NCBI GenBank assembly: GCA_963724295.1
Contig: CAVRUC010000010.1
Coordinates: 90,304 to 154,303, forward strand
DNA from: an uncultured Chloroflexia bacterium
Lineage (GTDB): Bacteria; Chloroflexota; Chloroflexia; Thermomicrobiales; UBA6265
Direction: 5' to 3'
DNA length: 64,000 nt
The position numbers and the translations under genes were made by a program. Numbering within the stretch: position 1 is the stretch's first letter; each line of letters begins with the position of its first letter. Positions 2,979-59,944 of the stretch are shown here, piece by piece. The notes below the pieces were generated by a model. The model was not told the DNA's origin, made no database searches, and saw only the letters and a program-made list of their open reading frames with translations.

Positions 2979-3644
2979 CTAGAGGTGAATCTCCGCCTGG
3001 TTCGTGCGGCACGACTCGGCGCGGACGATGGCGGCAATCTCATTCAATGCGGCTTCGAGCCGGTCCTGCTTGTTGAAGACCACGTAGTCGAAGCTGGGCG
3101 CGGAGGCTAGCTCTCGCGTGGCGGTCGCAAACCGGGTCATCAGCTCCGTCGGATCGTCGGTCTTACGATGCTTGAGCCGCTGCAGCAGCGTCGGCGCCGA
3201 CTCGGGCGCCAGGAAGATTGAGACCGCGTCCGGCACGATGCGCTCGATCTCGGCGGCGCCCTGGACATCGACCTTGACGAAGACATCCTGGCCTCGCGCC
3301 AGCGCCGCGCGTACGGGACCCTTCAACACGCCGTAGAGATTGCCGTAGACGGTGGCTGACTCGAGAAACTCCCCCTCGGCGAGCCGCTCACGGAAGTCGC
3401 CCTCGCTGAGAAAAAAGTAGTGAACGCCGTCGATCTCACCAGGGCGGCGCTCCCGGGTCGTGGCCGTAACCGCGAAGAAGGCCTCCGGGAAACGTTCCCG
3501 GAGCTGCTCGATGACGGCATCCTTGCCAACCCCGGATGGCCCGGAGATGATAAAAACCCGCGGGCGGCGGAGCGCTCGCAGGTCACCGATCAGATCGTCG
3601 GCGTCCTCACCAAGATGATCGCCCGCGACCGGCTTTACGTTCAT
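2979..3644 (-). CDS. gmk: guanylate kinase
   Basis: P-loop ISGPSGVGKDAV and overall Gmk-like sequence. Start is placed at Met33 of ORF 2979..3740; the exact start is uncertain. Confidence 0.85.
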   Translation of the reverse strand: MNVKPVAGDHLGEDADDLIGDLRALRRPRVFIISGPSGVGKDAVIEQLRERFPEAFFAVTATTRERRPGEIDGVHYFFLSEGDFRERLAEGEFLESATVYGNLYGVLKGPVRAALARGQDVFVKVDVQGAAEIERIVPDAVSIFLAPESAPTLLQRLKHRKTDDPTELMTRFATATRELASAPSFDYVVFNKQDRLEAALNEIAAIVRAESCRTNQAEIHL

Positions 3645-3789
3645 GCTCGCGACCTGGTGGTCCGGTCCCGAGTCGCTGCCGGCTCGCTCACCCGGTTCCA
3701 GCTCGACGACGGCGCTAGCTTCAGACCCGGTCTTCGTCACGCGCGTCCACTTTCCGGGCCACGGGGGCCGATTCGCGAAAGGTTGTTCT

Positions 3790-5671
3790 GTGCCCGATCC
3801 CTACGATGTCCTCACCGTCGCGGCAATCGCCGACGAGCTGAGCGCGACCATCGGCAACGGCCGTATCCAGCGCATCGGCTTGCTCGATCCGCGCACGATT
3901 GGCGCCGAGATCTATGCGGGCGGGCAACGTCATCACCTGATTGCCAGCGCTAACGACCGCCAGCCGCGACTTCGGCTCGCGCCTGACATGCCATCGCTGG
4001 ACTCAGCTCTGGTCACCCCGTTCGGACTCCTCCTCCGCAAGCACACCCGCGGCGGGATCATCCTTGGCATCGACCAACCGCCGCTGGAACGGTTGGTGCG
4101 CCTCAGTATAGCCAAGCGTCAGGCGCCCCTCAAAACAGGGCGGAGCGCCTCGCGGCCCGATGAGACCGAGATCGAAGTTGATGAACTTGATGAACTTGAT
4201 GAACTTGATGAACATCATGAATCCCGGGAGGGAGTAGCGCTGAACCATGTCGCCCTCTACATCGAGCTGATGGGGCGGCGCTCGAACCTGATCCTGGTCG
4301 ACGACGGCGGGCGGATCATGGAGAGCGCCAAGCGGGTGACAGGAGCAATGAGCCGCGTGCGGCCGGTACTCCCTCGCCTGCCCTATGTTCCACCGCCGCC
4401 GCCGGATCGACTCGATCCCCGGAGCATCACTCCGGCCTCCGCCGCGCAGCTTCTCGCATCGTTATCACCGGATGCCGGGCTGGCGCGCGCACTCGTCAGC
4501 GCCTATCACGGCCTCAGTCCGATCATGGCCGATGAGATCGTGTTCCGAGCCACGGGTTCGAGCGAGACCCGTGCCGGCGATGTGAACGCGGAGAGCGCGG
4601 AGTCGCTGGCACGCAATACATTGGCGTTGCTGGAGCCGTTGCGGACAACGGCCTGGAGCCCTCACATCTATCGCGAGCGGGGGCAAGCCGATCCGGGCGA
4701 GGTTGTCGCGTGCTCCCCGATCCTGATGACCCACCTCGCCGCGGAACACGACGTCAGCCCGGTCGAGAGCATGTCGGGAGCGCTGGCGACTGGCGGAGAG
4801 CGCCGCCGACCGCCCCAGCCCGGCGCGGCACGCCCAGCGCCGGCAGCGTCTGCTGGACTCGGTGGCAGCGGCGCGTGAGAAGGCAGAACGCCGGTTGGCG
4901 GCGCTGGCGACCGAATCGACACGAGCGGCCGAGGCCGAGCGGCTCAAGACCGCGGGCGAGCTGATCTACGCTCATCTCTGGCAGATCGAACCGGGTCAGA
5001 CATCGCTGGAGATCGACGGCGCATCGATTCCGCTCGATCCGGGTCTGACCGCGAACGAGAACGCCCAGAACTACTTCGAGCGCTACCGCAAGGCGCAGAG
5101 CGCGGAGACACAACTGCCGGGCCTGGTCGAGGAGAGCCGGGCGGAGATCGCCTATCTCGACCAACTGGCGACATTGATCGCACAGGCGCCGGGATTCTCC
5201 GAGCTGGAGGCTCTAGCCGCGGAGTTGGCGGAGCTAGCGCCGCCGGATCCTGCATCGCGGCCAAGAAAGTCGACCGCTCCGCGGCGGCCGCGGGCGCTCG
5301 TCGACACAAACGGGAATAGCGTCTACGTTGGCCGCAGTGGCCTCCAAAACGAGCTCGTCACCTTCGACATCGCCGGTCCGGACGACACCTGGCTGCACGC
5401 GCGCGGCGTCGGCGGCTCACACGTGGTGATCCGCTGGCGATCCCCTGACAGCCCCGAAGCCCCTGAGACCGTCGAAGCGGCGGCCGCCCTAGCCGCCTGG
5501 TACAGCGCGGCACGAGAGAGCGGCCGCGTCGAGGTCGACGTCGCGCCACGGCGCCACGTGCGTAAGATCAAAGGCGCCCGACCCGGGATGGTCACCTACC
5601 GCAACGAGCGGACGATCCGCGTTCAGCCCACGCCGGAAGAGCGCCTGCGCCACATCCTGTCAGACCGCTGA
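3790..5671 (+). pseudogene. rqcH: NFACT-family ribosome quality control protein (RqcH/FbpA-like), reading frame interrupted
   Basis: The N-terminus is NFACT-N-like (DVLTVAAIADELSATIGNGRIQRI). The C-terminus is NFACT-R/DUF814-like (VYVGRSGLQNELVTF..HARGVGGSHVVIRW). The two halves lie in frames 1 and 2. Frame 2 is open from 4730 and frame 1 stops at 4878, so the shift lies at about 4790-4830. Confidence 0.75.
4177..4212 (+). repeat. in-frame 9-bp tandem repeat (CTTGATGAA x4) inside rqcH, encoding VDELDELDELDE
   Basis: Read directly from the sequence. It forms a local AT-rich island in a GC-rich gene. Confidence 0.95.
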
Positions 5672-22286: not shown

Positions 22287-22356
22287 TCGAATCTCCTCTT
22301 TCGCGCTCCAGTTTCGTACGTCGATGGACGTCAGGAGGGCCCGGAGACCGACGGCC

Positions 22357-22476
22357 GTAGGGGCGACGCCCGCGTCGCCCGCGGTCCCGACCGGCTGGTA
22401 GCCGGATGTGGAACATGTCGCTACAACGCTAACGTACCTGGCGAATCGACACGGGCGACGCAGGCGTCGCCCCTAC
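22357..22476. repeat. pair of REP-like palindromes in inverted orientation (GTAGGGGCGACGCccGCGTCGCCC ... GGGCGACGCagGCGTCGCCCCTAC)
   Basis: Read directly from the sequence: 22357-22380 and 22453-22476. A third copy identical to the second lies at 32120-32143. Confidence 0.7.
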
Positions 22477-22518
22477 AAGCGTTGTACTCGGACACGCCGC
22501 CGTCCCCTCAGCATCGAC

Positions 22519-27407: not shown

Positions 27408-27428
27408 GTGGGGAGTATGGCCTGTGAG

Positions 27429-27540
27429 AGTCGGCAAGTCGTAAAGTCGGTAAGTGAATTGGTCGAGTGAGGCATACGACCTCCGCGGAATTCGCTGCCC
27501 TACTTTCTCCTTACCGACTTCCGACTGACCGACTTCGTAC
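27429..27540. repeat. forward AGTCGGNA x3.5 (27429-27456) and inverted NNACCGAC x4 (27511-27540) octamer arrays
   Basis: Read directly from the sequence. The arrays lie between the hypothetical gene and the rsmD start. Confidence 0.9.
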
Positions 27541-27591
27541 AAACACGAACCCGGCCTCGAGGGCCGGGCACGTGCGGGAAGGGGAAGGGGT
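27539..27591 (-). terminator. conserved 53-nt cassette; on the minus strand CCCGGCC-CTCGA-GGCCGGG hairpin followed by TTCGTGTTTGT
   Basis: 51/53 nt identical to 59892-59944. It lies about 70 nt downstream of the stop of the minus-strand gene 27662..28096. Confidence 0.6.
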
Positions 27592-27661: not shown

Positions 27662-28096
27662 TTACGTCGCCGCCCGCGGTCCGGATTCATGCCCTGGCCC
27701 GTTGGAGCCCGGTGCATTCGGATCGGCAATTGCCGCACCGGTAGCCGCGTCGATCCATTTGCGCCGTAATCCATCGTAGTAATAGGGCCGGTCGAGGGGA
27801 GGAGCCGGCGTGGATGCGACCGGCCGGTCACGCCGGCTGAGGCCGATGCGCCGCGCGCCGGGCATGTACCAGACGCTGAACTCCGCATCCACGAGCTCGT
27901 CGAGAACTCGGCCGACCAGCCACCAGCCATCGCGACCAACGCGGGGCGGCAAGGTGATCCCCGTTACCCGCTCCGCAATCGCCGCCGTTGTCAGCCTGGT
28001 GTGGGTTGGATCGGCGCGATGGCGGGCACGCCGCGCCGCGACGGCCTTGACGACCGCGATGGCGCTCTCCTCGATCGTCGGATAGGGATCGCTCAT
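27662..28096 (-). CDS. hypothetical protein
   Basis: 144-aa ORF with protein-like composition, bracketed by repeat loci. No recognisable motif. Confidence 0.45.
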   Translation of the reverse strand: MSDPYPTIEESAIAVVKAVAARRARHRADPTHTRLTTAAIAERVTGITLPPRVGRDGWWLVGRVLDELVDAEFSVWYMPGARRIGLSRRDRPVASTPAPPLDRPYYYDGLRRKWIDAATGAAIADPNAPGSNGPGHESGPRAAT

Positions 28097-28230
28097 GACT
28101 GGGACCTCCCGGCGGCCACATCACGGCCACCATGCTTGACGGCCCCTGCCGGTCAGCACTCCGGCGCTCCGGGACAGATTAGATCATATGTTCTATTTCC
28201 TGAGAGGTCAATCCCTGGGACGGGATGACG

Positions 28231-28343
28231 GGGTCGCAGGGTCGCAGGGTCGCGGGGTGACAGGGAGAACGATCCCCCGCCACCCTGCCACCACGAGCGG
28301 AGCGAGTAACGACCCCGCCACCCTCGTCTGACTTCCGACTCAG
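28231..28343. repeat. mosaic repeat locus: GGGTCGCR x4, 32-nt module GCCACCCTGCCACCACGAGCGGAGCGAGTAAC, GCCACCCTCGTCT, TCCGACT units
   Basis: Read directly from the sequence. The module at 28279-28310 is identical to the reverse complement of 50410-50441, and 29 nt of it recur at 57671-57699. Confidence 0.9.
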
Positions 28344-32052: not shown

Positions 32053-32119
32053 TGAGCCCGAACTGATTCCGGCAGACACGATCCGGGCGTCAGGAAGTCA
32101 GCAGGCAAATTGGCAACGC

Positions 32120-32176
32120 GGGCGACGCAGGCGTCGCCCCTACTCGCCGTCTGGCCGTCTCGCCGTCTTGCCGTCT
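32120..32176. repeat. REP-like palindrome GGGCGACGCAGGCGTCGCCCCTAC followed by (NGCCGTCT) x4 octamer array
   Basis: Read directly from the sequence. The array ends 3 nt from the recG stop codon. Confidence 0.9.
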
Positions 32177-32179
32177 CGT

Positions 32180-37408: not shown

Positions 37409-37415
37409 GACGGGC

Positions 37416-37493
37416 AGTCGGTAAGTCGGTAAGAACGAATATAGTCCGATACCCGATGGCCTACGTCCGACTTCCGACCCCCGACCTCCGACT
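37416..37493. repeat. forward AGTCGGTA x2 (37416-37431) and inverted TCCGACY x4 (37465-37493) arrays between convergent genes
   Basis: Read directly from the sequence. The arrays fill nearly the whole 91-nt gap between stop codons at 37408 and 37500. Confidence 0.9.
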
Positions 37494-37499
37494 CCAACC

Positions 37500-37898
37500 T
37501 CACGCCCAGGGATCGTCGCCCTCCGGCAACCGCCCGCCGAAGCGCCCTGATTCACCACGATCGGCCTCGGCCAGGCCGACGAGGGTGTCGAGGAACGGTT
37601 CCAGACCGGTATCCGGCTGGTGGAACCGGAAGCGGCCGAGCTCGTAGAGCACGCGTTGGTCGGGAAGGAACTCCTCACCCTGTCCCGCCAGTCGTTGCAA
37701 GTCGAGCAGCCGGGGGTCGTCGGCGGGAAGCGTCAACACATGAGCGGCAAGCTCCTCGAGCGCGGCCGCGGTGCGGAGATTCCGCTCATCGCGGTCGTAC
37801 TCTTCCGCCTTGCGCCGGCGCCAGGCAGCGGTCGAGCGGCAGAACTCCGCCAGCGAGAGCTGGAACCGGGACGGACCCGAGTCCATGCTACGTGTCAT
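37500..37898 (-). CDS. hypothetical protein (132 aa)
   Basis: Start is placed at MTRSMDSG. Composition is protein-like. It overlaps the upstream small gene by 11 nt. No motif recognised. Confidence 0.45.
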   Translation of the reverse strand: MTRSMDSGPSRFQLSLAEFCRSTAAWRRRKAEEYDRDERNLRTAAALEELAAHVLTLPADDPRLLDLQRLAGQGEEFLPDQRVLYELGRFRFHQPDTGLEPFLDTLVGLAEADRGESGRFGGRLPEGDDPWA

Positions 37899-41835: not shown

Positions 41836-41989
41836 TGGCCTTCACCTCCCCGGCCACAACCGGGGCGACGGACTATGCGGCGAAGCGATGACCGGAAGGG
41901 GGCATCCGGGATCCTCGCGCGCGGAGTTGGGACGGTGCTGTCGGGTGCCACCGAGTGTAGCAGCAGCTTGTACGTACGTCTATGGTTGG

Positions 41990-42037
41990 AGTCGGTAAGT
42001 CGGTGAGTCGGTGAGTCGGTGAGTCGGTAAGTCGGAT
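41990..42037. repeat. (AGTCGGTR) x6 perfect-register octamer array
   Basis: Read directly from the sequence. It is intergenic, between the TPR gene stop and the downstream gene start. Confidence 0.95.
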
Positions 42038-42102
42038 GCGCGGCGGTTCTAGCTCCCCTCGCATGGAGTTAGGAAAGCGAGTCTGGAGCGGGACAGTCTT
42101 CG

Positions 42103-46633: not shown

Positions 46634-47680
46634 GTGGGGCAGGGGCTAGCGGCTGCTGGCGCCATCTCGTGGGGAGCGGGGCAGATGGCCGTATCGGGAC
46701 GCGATCACTCAGCCGAAAGAGCCACCGTCGCAGGCAGACGAGAGCGACCGCGGCGCGACCTCAACCCCGTTTTTCGCGCCGGGATTCTCGCTGTCACCAG
46801 CAATCCGCTCGTGTCGCGCGGGGTGCGGCGCTACGGCATGCGTCTGGGCGCATCACGCTTCGTCGCCGGCGAGACATTCGCCGAGGCGATTCTTGTCCTG
46901 CGATCGCTGAATCAGAGCGGTCTGCGCACCAACACCACCCTGCTCGGCGAAGGAGTCAAGGACCCAGCCACCACCCAGGCCGTCGTCGACGAGTACAAAG
47001 CGGATCTCGACCGCATCGCGGCGGAGGGGCTGCAGACCAATATCGCACTCAAGTTGACGCATCTTGGTCTCGATCTCGATCCCGAGCTCGCCTATCGCAA
47101 CGTTGCCGACGTCGTCGCGCACGCCGCGACGCACGGCAACTTCATCCGCATCGACATGGAGGAATCGGCCCGCGTCGACGACACCCTGCGCATCTATCGC
47201 CGCCTCCGCGGCGACGGACATGACAACGTCGGGACCGTTTTGCAGTCGTACCTCTATCGCACCCCGGCCGATCTGGAGAGTCTCTTGCCGCTGTCGCCCA
47301 ATCTCCGCCTGGTAAAAGGCGCCTATCTGGAGCCGGCGAGCATCGCCTACCCGCGTAAGGCAGACGTCGACCGCGCCTACATCGAACTGGCGGAGCGCAT
47401 GCTGATTGACAGCGCCTTCACCGCGATCGCGACGCATGACGAACGGATCATCGATCACGTTATCGCGTTCACTCAGCGCCATGGCATTGGCACCGACCGC
47501 TTCGAGTTTCAGATGCTCTACGGCGTGCGGCCGCAGTTTCAGCTCGACCTCGCGCGGGCCGGTCACCGTGTCCTCATCGCCACGCCCTACGGTCCGCACT
47601 GGTACCACTATCTCATGCGCCGCCTCGCGGAACGTCCCGCGAACCTGGTCTGGTTCGCGACGAACATGGTGAGGCGGTAG
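46634..47680 (+). CDS. proline dehydrogenase
   Basis: FVAGET, LKLTHLG, IRIDMEES, LVKGAY, ATHDE and FQMLYG motifs. Start is uncertain. Confidence 0.85.
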   Translation: MGQGLAAAGAISWGAGQMAVSGRDHSAERATVAGRRERPRRDLNPVFRAGILAVTSNPLVSRGVRRYGMRLGASRFVAGETFAEAILVLRSLNQSGLRTNTTLLGEGVKDPATTQAVVDEYKADLDRIAAEGLQTNIALKLTHLGLDLDPELAYRNVADVVAHAATHGNFIRIDMEESARVDDTLRIYRRLRGDGHDNVGTVLQSYLYRTPADLESLLPLSPNLRLVKGAYLEPASIAYPRKADVDRAYIELAERMLIDSAFTAIATHDERIIDHVIAFTQRHGIGTDRFEFQMLYGVRPQFQLDLARAGHRVLIATPYGPHWYHYLMRRLAERPANLVWFATNMVRR

Positions 47681-47687
47681 CGCGCGA

Positions 47688-47719
47688 AGTCGGTAAGTCG
47701 GTCAGTCGGTAAGTCGGCA
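47688..47719. repeat. (AGTCGGNN) x4 octamer array starting 8 nt after the proline dehydrogenase stop
   Basis: Read directly from the sequence. Confidence 0.95.
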
Positions 47720-47780
47720 AGGAAGAGCGCAGATGAGGGGTCGAGAAGAACTCGCGTCCAATCCCCCTCTTCCCCCGGGA

Positions 47781-47834
47781 GCGTAGCGACCCCCCTCAGC
47801 GCAGCGCCCCCCTGAGCGGAGCGGCACCCCCTCC
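47781..47834. repeat. three tandem 17-19-nt units (GCGNAGCGNCCCCCCTNA-like)
   Basis: Read directly from the sequence: GCGTAGCGACCCCCCTCA / GCGCAGCGCCCCCCTGA / GCGGAGCGGCACCCCCTCC. Confidence 0.8.
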
Positions 47835-50358: not shown

Positions 50359-50376
50359 TTGCTCCCTGCGGTCGCG

Positions 50377-50506
50377 GTGGTTGTTCGCTGCGCTCACGGT
50401 GACAGGGTGGTTACTCGCTCCGCTCGTGGTGGCAGGGTGGCAAGGTATTGGGTCACGGTTCTCCCTGCCACCCTGCCACCCTGCCACCCTGCCACCCTGC
50501 CACCCT
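50377..50506. repeat. mosaic repeat locus: 30-nt tandem units x2.3, inverted copy of the 32-nt module, then (CCCTGCCA) x5
   Basis: Read directly from the sequence. GGTGGCAGGGTGGCA (50429-50443) is complementary to TGCCACCCTGCCACC (50466-50480), giving a long hairpin after guaB. Confidence 0.9.
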
Positions 50507-50541
50507 CGTCTCACCCAGGACCGTTGACTCTGAGTCTCATA

Positions 50542-50570
50542 TAGTCAAGCGCGCGATCACTCGATACAAT
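50542..50570 (+). promoter_or_regulatory. candidate sigma-70-type promoter TAGTCA-17 nt-TACAAT
   Basis: Read directly from the sequence. It lies about 50 nt upstream of the ATG at 50622 in an AT-richer patch. Confidence 0.35.
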
Positions 50571-57646: not shown

Positions 57647-57716
57647 GGTGACGGGGTCATCGTTCTCCCTGCCACCCTGCCACCACGAGCGGAGCGAGTC
57701 ATCACCCATCACCCAA
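57647..57716. repeat. mosaic repeat locus: GGGTGAC.., 29 nt of the GCCACCCTGCCACCACGAGCGGAGCGAGT module, then CATCACC x2
   Basis: Read directly from the sequence. It fills the gap between convergent stops at 57646 and 57709. Confidence 0.9.
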
Positions 57717-59752: not shown

Positions 59753-59888
59753 GGTGATGGGTGATCGGGCTATTGGCTGTTGGCTGTTGGCTGTTGGCTG
59801 TTGGCTCACGACCGATGACTCACAATTCACGACGAGCCGTCTTGCCATTTCGCCATCTACTTGCCGACTCACCGACTGACCGACTCAC
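59753..59888. repeat. GGTGATS x2, (TTGGCTG) x5 heptamer array (59773-59807), inverted NNACCGAC x3.5 (59861-59888)
   Basis: Read directly from the sequence. Confidence 0.9.
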
Positions 59889-59891
59889 GCC

Positions 59892-59944
59892 ACAAACACG
59901 AACCCGGCCTCTTGGGCCGGGCACGTGCGGGAAGGGGAAGGGGT
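59892..59944 (-). terminator. second copy of the conserved 53-nt hairpin/G-rich cassette
   Basis: ACAAACACGAACCCGGCCTCTTGGGCCGGGCACGTGCGGGAAGGGGAAGGGGT. On the minus strand the GC hairpin is followed by TTCGTGTTTGT. It lies 80 nt downstream of the stop of 60024..61745. Confidence 0.6.

Follow-up and report, generated by a model that had tools for sequence, protein, structure and literature searches.

The window analysed here, i.e., the whole 64-kb stretch of DNA, has a G+C content of 66% and, according to a gene model based on codon usage, contains 59 genes that leave 11.5% of its length intergenic. A tRNA scan detected no tRNA genes in the window, and no Rfam family matched it at gathering score; one protein of the window, looked up by exact sequence, had no record. 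In five of the spacers we found tandem arrays of an octamer unit, AGTCGGTN, whose neighbors are ordinary housekeeping genes: RsmD-like methyltransferase, TPR protein, proline dehydrogenase and ParA-like ATPase. Homologues of the proline dehydrogenase (46811-47680) reach 93% identity, and the named ones originate from Thermomicrobiales or Chloroflexota. The arrays and the elements belonging to them are as follows.

27429-27456, plus strand: left hairpin arm, AGTCGGTN x3.5 (AGTCGGCA AGTCGTAA AGTCGGTA AGTG), from the dimer search, Tandem Repeats Finder and folding
27457-27510, no strand assigned: loop of 54 nt between the inverted arms, without similarity to other loops in sequence comparison
27511-27540, minus strand: right hairpin arm, NACCGACT x3.5, from the dimer search and folding
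37416-37431, plus strand: AGTCGGTA x2, from the dimer search, serving as left arm; the hairpin is weak and the genes around it converge
37465-37493, minus strand: degenerate 7-nt array TCCGACY x4, right arm, ending 6 nt before the stop codon of a minus-strand gene
41990-42037, plus strand: largest array, AGTCGGTR x6, solo and unstructured
47688-47719, plus strand: solo array of AAGTCGGT x4 that starts 7 nt beyond the stop codon of proline dehydrogenase
47720-47833, plus strand: rest of a cassette of about 150 nt, with a purine/pyrimidine hairpin (GGAAGAG...CTCTTCC), then a 17-mer x3 (AGCGCAGCGCCCCCCTS)
59861-59888, minus strand: NACCGACT x3.5 (AGTCGGTN on the minus strand), adjoining the second of two terminator-like modules

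The original prediction that AGTCGGTR forms a genuine repeat family was borne out by a search for its tandem dimers, which with up to two mismatches gave 13 matches in the 64-kb window against 0.13 expected, a number attained in none of 100 shuffles. These matches correspond to the AGTCGGTN arrays of the five spacers and none falls in a gene. Tandem Repeats Finder delimited period-8 arrays at 41989-42035 (5.9 copies), 47687-47721 (4.4), 27429-27455 (3.4), 37416-37433 (2.2) and, in reverse complement, 59864-59888 (3.1), and a period-7 array of TCCGACC at 37466-37501. The seven AGTCGGTN-type arrays contain no coding base under the codon-usage gene model, and genes hold 22 single AGTCGG/CCGACT hexamers and not one tandem dimer, in line with the claim that every array is intergenic. 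As had been noted, the unit does vary in its last base and the arrays in copy number; the largest array, for instance, reads AGTCGGTA AGTCGGTG x3 AGTCGGTA AGTCGG. As for the reverse-complement copies listed earlier, those at 27511-27540 and 59861-59888 hold, while 37465-37493 proved to be the degenerate heptamer array and 28330-28343, with about 1.5 units, is no array.

We determined that the arrays are mostly placed 3' of genes, with start codons 79-211 nt away. Their reported proximity to stop codons was likewise recovered: the gap is 7 nt both at 37416, downstream of a tRNA U5-methyltransferase-like gene, and at 47688, and when all repeat families are considered, several window arrays lie 1-7 nt from a stop codon. 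The largest array is located 65 nt downstream of the TPR gene stop and 154 nt upstream of the start of the next gene, both genes being on the minus strand. In general, the arrays occupy unconstrained DNA that extends from a stop codon or terminator to the upstream region of the next gene.

Several identities were considered for the arrays and dismissed. A CRISPR array is ruled out, the units being 8 nt long and joined head-to-tail without spacers, whereas CRISPRs have repeats of 24-48 nt and unique spacers of similar length. Phase-variation (contingency) repeats lie within an ORF or between promoter hexamers, and all the arrays found here are outside ORFs. Stop codons in all frames do occur when N of the unit is A, G or T; we abandoned this as a property of the unit because the orthologous units AAGGCGGC and AAGACGGC of relatives contain no stop. 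Similarly, the likeness of AGTCGGTA to the tRNA D-loop and to anti-Shine-Dalgarno pairing was judged coincidental since the unit is not conserved between relatives.

The AGTCGGTN family is one of several 7-8 nt tandem families in the window, a fact absent from the original prediction. Among the 42 spacers of at least 30 nt, nine hold a 7-8 nt array. The further families comprise GGGTCGCA, CCCTGCCA/GGTGGCAG, CTCGCCGT and GGCTGTT, in addition to the 17-mer array, and are listed below with the two terminator-like modules.

27539-27591, minus strand: module of 53 nt abutting an array; on the minus strand it has a GC hairpin of terminator type and a T-run
28215-28330, minus strand: (GGGTCGCA)n...(CCCYGCCA)n hairpin, z = -6.1, containing the conserved core CACGAGCGGAGCGAGTAAC
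32143-32178, plus strand: CTCGCCGT x4.5, ending 1 nt from a stop codon, beside a REP-like palindrome
50395-50512, plus strand: (GGTGGCAG)n...(CCCTGCCA)x5.5 hairpin, z = -5.7
57647-57708, plus strand: CCCTGCCA x2 with the same conserved core as in 28215-28330, between convergent stop codons
59768-59806, plus strand: GGCTGTT x5.6 heptamer array, sharing a spacer with 59861-59888
59892-59944, minus strand: second copy of the 53-nt terminator-like module, 96% identical to 27539-27591

The conserved core of 30-50 nt, CCCTGCCACCACGAGCGGAGCGAGTAAC, is found at 28272-28322, 50398-50448 (reverse) and 57667-57707, with 88-97% identity, embedded in CCCTGCCA/GGGTGRCA octamer arrays of three spacers. It recalls the very small dispersed repeats reported inside cyanobacterial tandem repeats. 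In turn, the 53-nt module, which looks like a terminator judging by its sequence, consists of CCCCTTCCCCTTCCCGCACGTG, the GC hairpin and then TTCGTGTTTGT on the minus strand; in both copies it is directly followed by a AGTCGGTN array, and it was not found in the fetched loci of relatives. Between two repeat modules lies a 144-aa ORF (27662-28096, minus strand) with no Pfam match and a weak codon score, for which a promoter-like TTGACC-17-TATGAT is present at 28211-28183. A GTAG-tagged palindrome, GTAGGGGCGACGCnnGCGTCGCCC, REP-like in appearance, occurs at 22357-22381 and 22452-22476 as an inverted pair and again at 32119-32143, where it abuts the CTCGCCGT array. The pair (22344-22489) gives a REPIN-like fold of -92.7 kcal/mol (z = -8.1). 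The same palindrome was detected in loci L119 (15448-15473) and L090 (2122-2147), in the latter within the loop between inverted AGTCGGTN arrays.

Folding separates the AGTCGGTN arrays into two forms, inverted pairs of the type (AGTCGGTN)n-loop-(NACCGACT)n and unstructured solo arrays; the forward/reverse pairing had not been noticed previously. Paired arrays fold into stems of about 25-30 bp. The strongest one is formed by the arms at 27429-27540, the region 27425-27545 reaching -53.7 kcal/mol on the minus strand (z = -5.25). The pair at 37416-37493 folds weakly (37409-37499; z = -1.7 on the plus and -0.7 on the minus strand), and at the solo arrays 41990, 47688 and 59861, i.e., in three of the five AGTCGGTN spacers, the long stem is absent (z = +1.4, +1.2 and 0.1). 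At 59861-59888 the partner array across the spacer is the unrelated GGCTGTT. The hairpin loops of the window share no sequence with one another or with the PF05635 gene cassettes described below. Since hairpin stability does not consistently favor the transcribed strand, DNA-level and RNA-level selection are not separable, and the latter is putative at most.

Comparison with relatives, for which five syntenic loci were used, demonstrated that the arrays are gained and lost as indels. The closest relative, L117, aligns with 87% nucleotide identity over 19 kb, and this aligned stretch of L117 is devoid of 7-8 nt arrays. The only window-specific internal indels of at least 12 nt relative to L117 are 42019-42092, 47682-47829, 50362-50518 and 57651-57699, all of which are repeat regions; the last is an indel of 49 nt in the region 57647-57708. 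The hairpin 50395-50512 is specific to the window with respect to both L117 and L151, and the largest AGTCGGTN array, 41990-42037, is also absent from these two relatives. A 1.9-kb segment of L117 (7866-9813, corresponding to about 46501 in the window) is missing from the window; its content, fragments of a RecQ-like helicase and small ORFs, makes this an indel unrelated to the arrays.

At orthologous sites where arrays are present, the unit differs. Directly 3' of the proline dehydrogenase stop codon the window carries (AAGTCGGT)4, L151 (AAGGCGGC)4-5 and L152 (AAGACGGC)4, while L117 has nothing. The three arrays align in register and the remainder of the cassette of about 150 nt is alignable, with a copy number of the 17-mer that differs in L151 and L152. 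Because these independent assemblies have an in-register array at the same site, the arrays are not an assembly artefact, one of the conditions under which the original prediction was to fail; the last base is moreover heterogeneous within arrays and their flanks are well aligned, which makes an error of sequencing or assembly at repeats or contig joins exceedingly improbable. At the convergent tRNA-methyltransferase site, (AGTCGGTA)2...(TCCGACY)4 of the window is matched in L119 by a (GGGTGAT)3...(ATCACCC) hairpin, and at the site of the IMP dehydrogenase and C39 peptidase genes, occupied in the window by the hairpin 50395-50512, L118 has a hairpin of a different unit. Elsewhere, L118 possesses a (AGTCGAA)4...(TTCGACT)4 hairpin. 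Thus, concerted evolution replaces the unit but leaves the array in place, and with it the complementarity of the arms at sites that have two; what persists in orthologous comparisons is the array/hairpin architecture and not the unit sequence. Immediately after the variable hairpin, and still ahead of the C39 peptidase gene, we observed a palindromic motif, TTGACTCTGAGTCTCATATAGTCAAG, kept across relatives (window 50522-50547, L117 13582-13607, and the same place in L151 and L118), which is probably an operator or promoter.

The retention of hairpins could be taken to mean that paired arrays are host-selected 3'-end structures, i.e., (bidirectional) terminators or mRNA-stabilising stem-loops comparable to REP/BIME. 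Several arrays abut stop codons, the hairpin is kept in spite of the changed unit both at the convergent-gene site (L119) and at the IMP dehydrogenase/C39 peptidase site (L118), and the 28215-28330 hairpin is situated between a stop codon and a promoter-like site. Nevertheless, the stems are not followed by U-tracts, the arrays 27511-27540 and 59861-59888 each follow a distinct hairpin that is itself terminator-like and has a T-run, L117 has none of them at the same sites, and solo arrays cannot act in this manner. A terminator or stabiliser role selected by the host is possible and not required, and as an explanation of the arrays we consider it rather unlikely.

The same comparisons bear on the proposal that AGTCGGT is a binding site of a regulatory protein or RNA, as suggested for the TAACTGA repeats of Beggiatoaceae. 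The preservation of the array/hairpin architecture under changing units at orthologous sites argues against a sequence-specific site. The unit is, admittedly, common to several loci of one genome, and AGTCGGT recurs at several loci within unrelated genomes of Saprospiraceae, Planctomycetota and Chloroflexia MAGs. However, the orientation of solo arrays relative to transcription differs (41990 is antisense, 47688 and 59861 are sense), and the distance of the arrays to start codons is not fixed. The unit also shows no excess over control octamers: in viral contigs it was found at 8 loci, compared to 17 and 6 for two composition-matched controls. When one genome of each species was scanned for three tandem units, more than 116 loci were retrieved from many phyla, several genomes being matched repeatedly. 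The matched loci contain mostly homogeneous arrays and are rich in unrelated 7- and 8-nt arrays. Given this homogeneity, the richness in other arrays and the comparable frequency of controls in viral contigs, AGTCGGT is not a special cross-phylum motif. The earlier suggestion of a recruited protein- or RNA-binding repeat was therefore not upheld; a sequence-specific binding role is unlikely, and as an account of the arrays it is very improbable indeed.

The convergent arrangement recurs in Saprospiraceae, Spirosoma, Hyphomicrobiales, Gemmatimonadetes, Pirellulaceae and Chloroflexia, and convergent inverted pairs outside the window were recorded in loci L005, L014, L045, L054, L061, L074, L090 and L107. 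Solo arrays made of 15-35 perfect AGTCGGTG copies (up to 280 nt), at several loci of one genome, were also observed in the long-read MAGs OZ251456.1 and OZ241326.1. These long arrays are L025 6125-6404, L072 2256-2535, L012 3139-3258 and L079 1324-1467; GTAG-tagged palindromes are found nearby and no inverted partner was seen.

We found that inverted AGTCGGTN arrays may enclose a gene, which the original prediction did not foresee. The ORFs bracketed in this way in L092 (Chloroflexota) and L042 (Planctomycetota) encode proteins of the PF05635 or 23S rRNA intervening-sequence protein family (E = 1.8e-31 and 2.2e-39, respectively), and L106 and L094 provide further PF05635 cases. In L106 (5597-6111, an Akkermansia MAG) the gene lies between direct AGTCGGTG arrays, the only direct case encountered. 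In related Chloroflexota and Thermomicrobiales the units AGTCGGTN, AGTCGGCN and AGGCGGCN form one family of inverted arms around the PF05635 gene. Six-frame ORFs of the 64-kb window revealed neither a PF05635 gene nor a remnant, so the link between the arrays and such cassettes rests on other genomes of the same phylum and not on the present one.

Loci L235, L234 and L233 were fetched as Thermomicrobiales homologues of the L092 PF05635 protein. L092, L235 and L234 carry the PF05635 gene at one and the same junction, between an AP_endonuc_2 gene and a GFO_IDH_MocA gene, with arms of (AGTCGGTN)3 / (NACCGACT)4 in L092, (GAGTCGGC)4 / (TGCCGACT)4 in L235 and (GAGTCGAG, AAGGCGAG)6 / (CTCCTCGA, CTTCTCGA)4 in L234. 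In L233 the cassette is at another site and its arms, (AGGCGGCN)4 / (NGCCGCCT)4, correspond to the L151 unit. The AP_endonuc_2/GFO_IDH_MocA junction is empty in L236 and L237-L246, where it measures 17-31 nt, so that in the filled genomes a stop codon precedes the PF05635 cassette and the next Shine-Dalgarno sequence follows it. Presence/absence polymorphism is thus seen twice, between the window and L117 and between the filled (L092, L234, L235) and empty (L236, L237-L246) junctions. Neither a target-site duplication nor any other sign of transposition was evident when filled and empty PF05635 sites were compared.

Metagenomes searched with a PF05635 alignment yielded 80 loci (L153-L232), picked by similarity to two array-found proteins, a selection that may be biased towards one subfamily. 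In 63 of these 80 loci, 7-8 nt arrays are present within 250 nt of the gene, and arrays are concentrated there (91 in 37 kb near the gene vs. 24 in 137 kb farther off). When only the 66 loci with adequate flanks are considered, a 6-9 nt array occurs within 250 nt in 55 of them. Where arrays are present on both sides (16 loci), they are invariably inverted copies of one unit, with at most one mismatch in 15 cases, and in 43 of 65 loci the pairing of the flanks exceeds that of shuffles. Most of the sampled genes, annotated as "four helix bundle protein", are bracketed by tandem 7-8 nt arrays, the unit varying among loci. In many cases the 5'-arm unit starts with AG or AGT (AGTACCA, AGTTTCG, AGTGATT, AGCGTAT, AGGCAAT).

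Taken together, we regard it as probable that the AGTCGGTN arrays are the form taken in this genome by the tandem-repeat arms that belong to small intergenic hairpin cassettes. The window copies would then be ORF-less relatives of the PF05635 cassettes, either deletion derivatives or bare arms, and slipped-strand mispairing and gene conversion would account for the expansion, contraction and homogenisation of the arrays. The slipped-strand behavior invoked in the original prediction fits the data. The nucleotide sequence of the unit would not itself be recognised. Paired copies, when transcribed, may give rise to long double-stranded RNA stems that could be processed by RNase III or serve as 3'-end structures, by analogy with 23S rRNA intervening sequences, so that RNase III processing of the window stems would be expected from that resemblance. 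Solo arrays are presumably leftovers with little or no function.

Another reading is that the arrays are long-unit microsatellites evolving neutrally, products of slippage in unconstrained DNA that are functionless and unrelated to PF05635 cassettes. The restriction of arrays to hypervariable spacers, the lack of structure in solo arrays, the many unrelated 7-8 nt units within the same genomes and the frequency of control octamers in viral contigs are all compatible with it. Yet, it leaves unexplained the presence of one unit in five spacers within 64 kb, the consistent convergent pairing of forward and reverse arrays, the joint change of both arms at one orthologous site and the inverted same-unit copies at every two-sided PF05635 locus. 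We consider purely neutral slippage improbable as the whole explanation.

For the hairpin-cassette reading, a broader extension can be put forward tentatively, and we deem it possible though distinctly less probable than its application to the window: inverted 7-8 nt arrays might be the defining ends of very widespread, largely undescribed selfish hairpin cassettes, the gene in the ORF-bearing form being PF05635 (S23p/Avd-like). Classical intervening sequences of 23S rRNA would represent a special case residing in rRNA, and many orphan heptamer/octamer families, including the STRR-like ones and AGTCGGTN, would be derivatives lacking the ORF. The repeat arms might be a target of the PF05635 pentamer. 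Should the link to PF05635 be general, it would give these intergenic repeats a concrete origin in cassettes resembling intervening sequences, make RNase III processing of operon transcripts a testable consequence and provide a genomic context for the very common "four helix bundle protein" genes. As for annotation, caution is advisable in calling such arrays regulatory sites or CRISPR-like features.

Reports of intergenic heptamer and octamer repeats have appeared piecemeal over more than 30 years, with no agreed origin or function. STRR heptamers of heterocystous cyanobacteria are short tandem units scattered over intergenic DNA, one genome having several such families. The analogy with them drawn at the outset is apt, as the window has dispersed tandem intergenic arrays of several families; the differences concern the period (8 nt instead of a heptamer such as CCCCAGT), the unit, AGTCGGTN, and the host, which is of Thermomicrobiales/Chloroflexota instead of cyanobacterial origin. 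The original prediction knew of no description of the repeat. In the literature that we searched, the coverage of which is incomplete, the AGTCGGTN unit strings are indeed absent and a general link between PF05635 and arrays is not stated, but repeats of this kind have been described (PMC4692102; PMC4679880; PMC4990558). What is new is the octamer unit and its Thermomicrobiales host; intergenic long-unit tandem repeats as such were already known.

Considerable similarity exists with the GGGAATC arrays of Xanthomonas, treated alongside the GGGGAYT repeats of Nostoc. The Xanthomonas arrays are intergenic in 89-93% of cases, follow the upstream ORF at a distance of about 28 nt, include 70-75 convergent pairs able to adopt stem-loops and vary between close relatives (Rehm et al., 2015; PMC4692102). 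The window arrays are likewise tandem, intergenic and near the end of the upstream ORF, comprise the convergent pairs 27429/27511 and 37416/37465 and vary in length and sequence among close relatives. In contrast, the Xanthomonas/Nostoc unit is 7 nt long, G-rich and G-quadruplex-capable and belongs to Gammaproteobacteria/Cyanobacteria, whereas the present unit has 8 nt, no G-runs and a Thermomicrobiales host; the PF05635 cassette link seen here was not reported for those repeats (PMC4692102). The TAACTGA arrays of Beggiatoaceae, Cyanobacteria and Bacteroidetes, proposed as the site of a translational regulator, are mostly direct and forward and positioned just upstream of start codons, with one inverted case (MacGregor, 2015; PMC4679880). 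They resemble AGTCGGTN in that one unit forms tandem intergenic arrays at many loci of distant phyla, but AGTCGGTN arrays are near stop codons, often inverted and without fixed orientation.

An architectural parallel to the gene-bearing cassettes is the intervening sequence of Coxiella 23S rRNA, in which a 28-bp stem of terminal inverted repeats carries an S23p (PF05635) ORF in its loop, and tandem GACAGAT heptamers of strain-variable number are placed 5'-terminally in the element, immediately before the ORF; RNase III cuts it at the first repeat (Warrier et al., 2016; PMC4990558). The architecture of the Coxiella/Leptospira elements is that of the cassettes in L092, L235, L234, L233 and L042, which have the PF05635 ORF in the loop, and in 16 metagenomic loci. 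However, those elements reside inside rRNA helices, while the present cassettes are between protein-coding genes and the window copies lack an ORF. Like REP/REPIN and BIME, the arrays are short, intergenic, palindromic, often beside gene ends, combined with other motifs into mosaics and strain-variable. REPs are, though, single imperfect palindromes with a GTAG or CGTC tag and not tandem arrays (PMC3733652), and REP/REPIN identity was rejected for these untagged tandem octamers, next to which a separate REP-like family exists at 22357-22489 and 32119-32143. MITE identity was rejected too, the loops being unrelated and the filled/empty sites free of target-site duplication.

Apart from the intergenic families, GAACTTGAT x5.3 is present at 4174-4221 of the window with a 9-nt period and 92% matches. 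This array is located either within the 5' part of ORF 3643-4878, where it would encode (ELD)n, or upstream of a shorter gene that starts with ATG at 4247 and is preceded by GGGAGGGAG.
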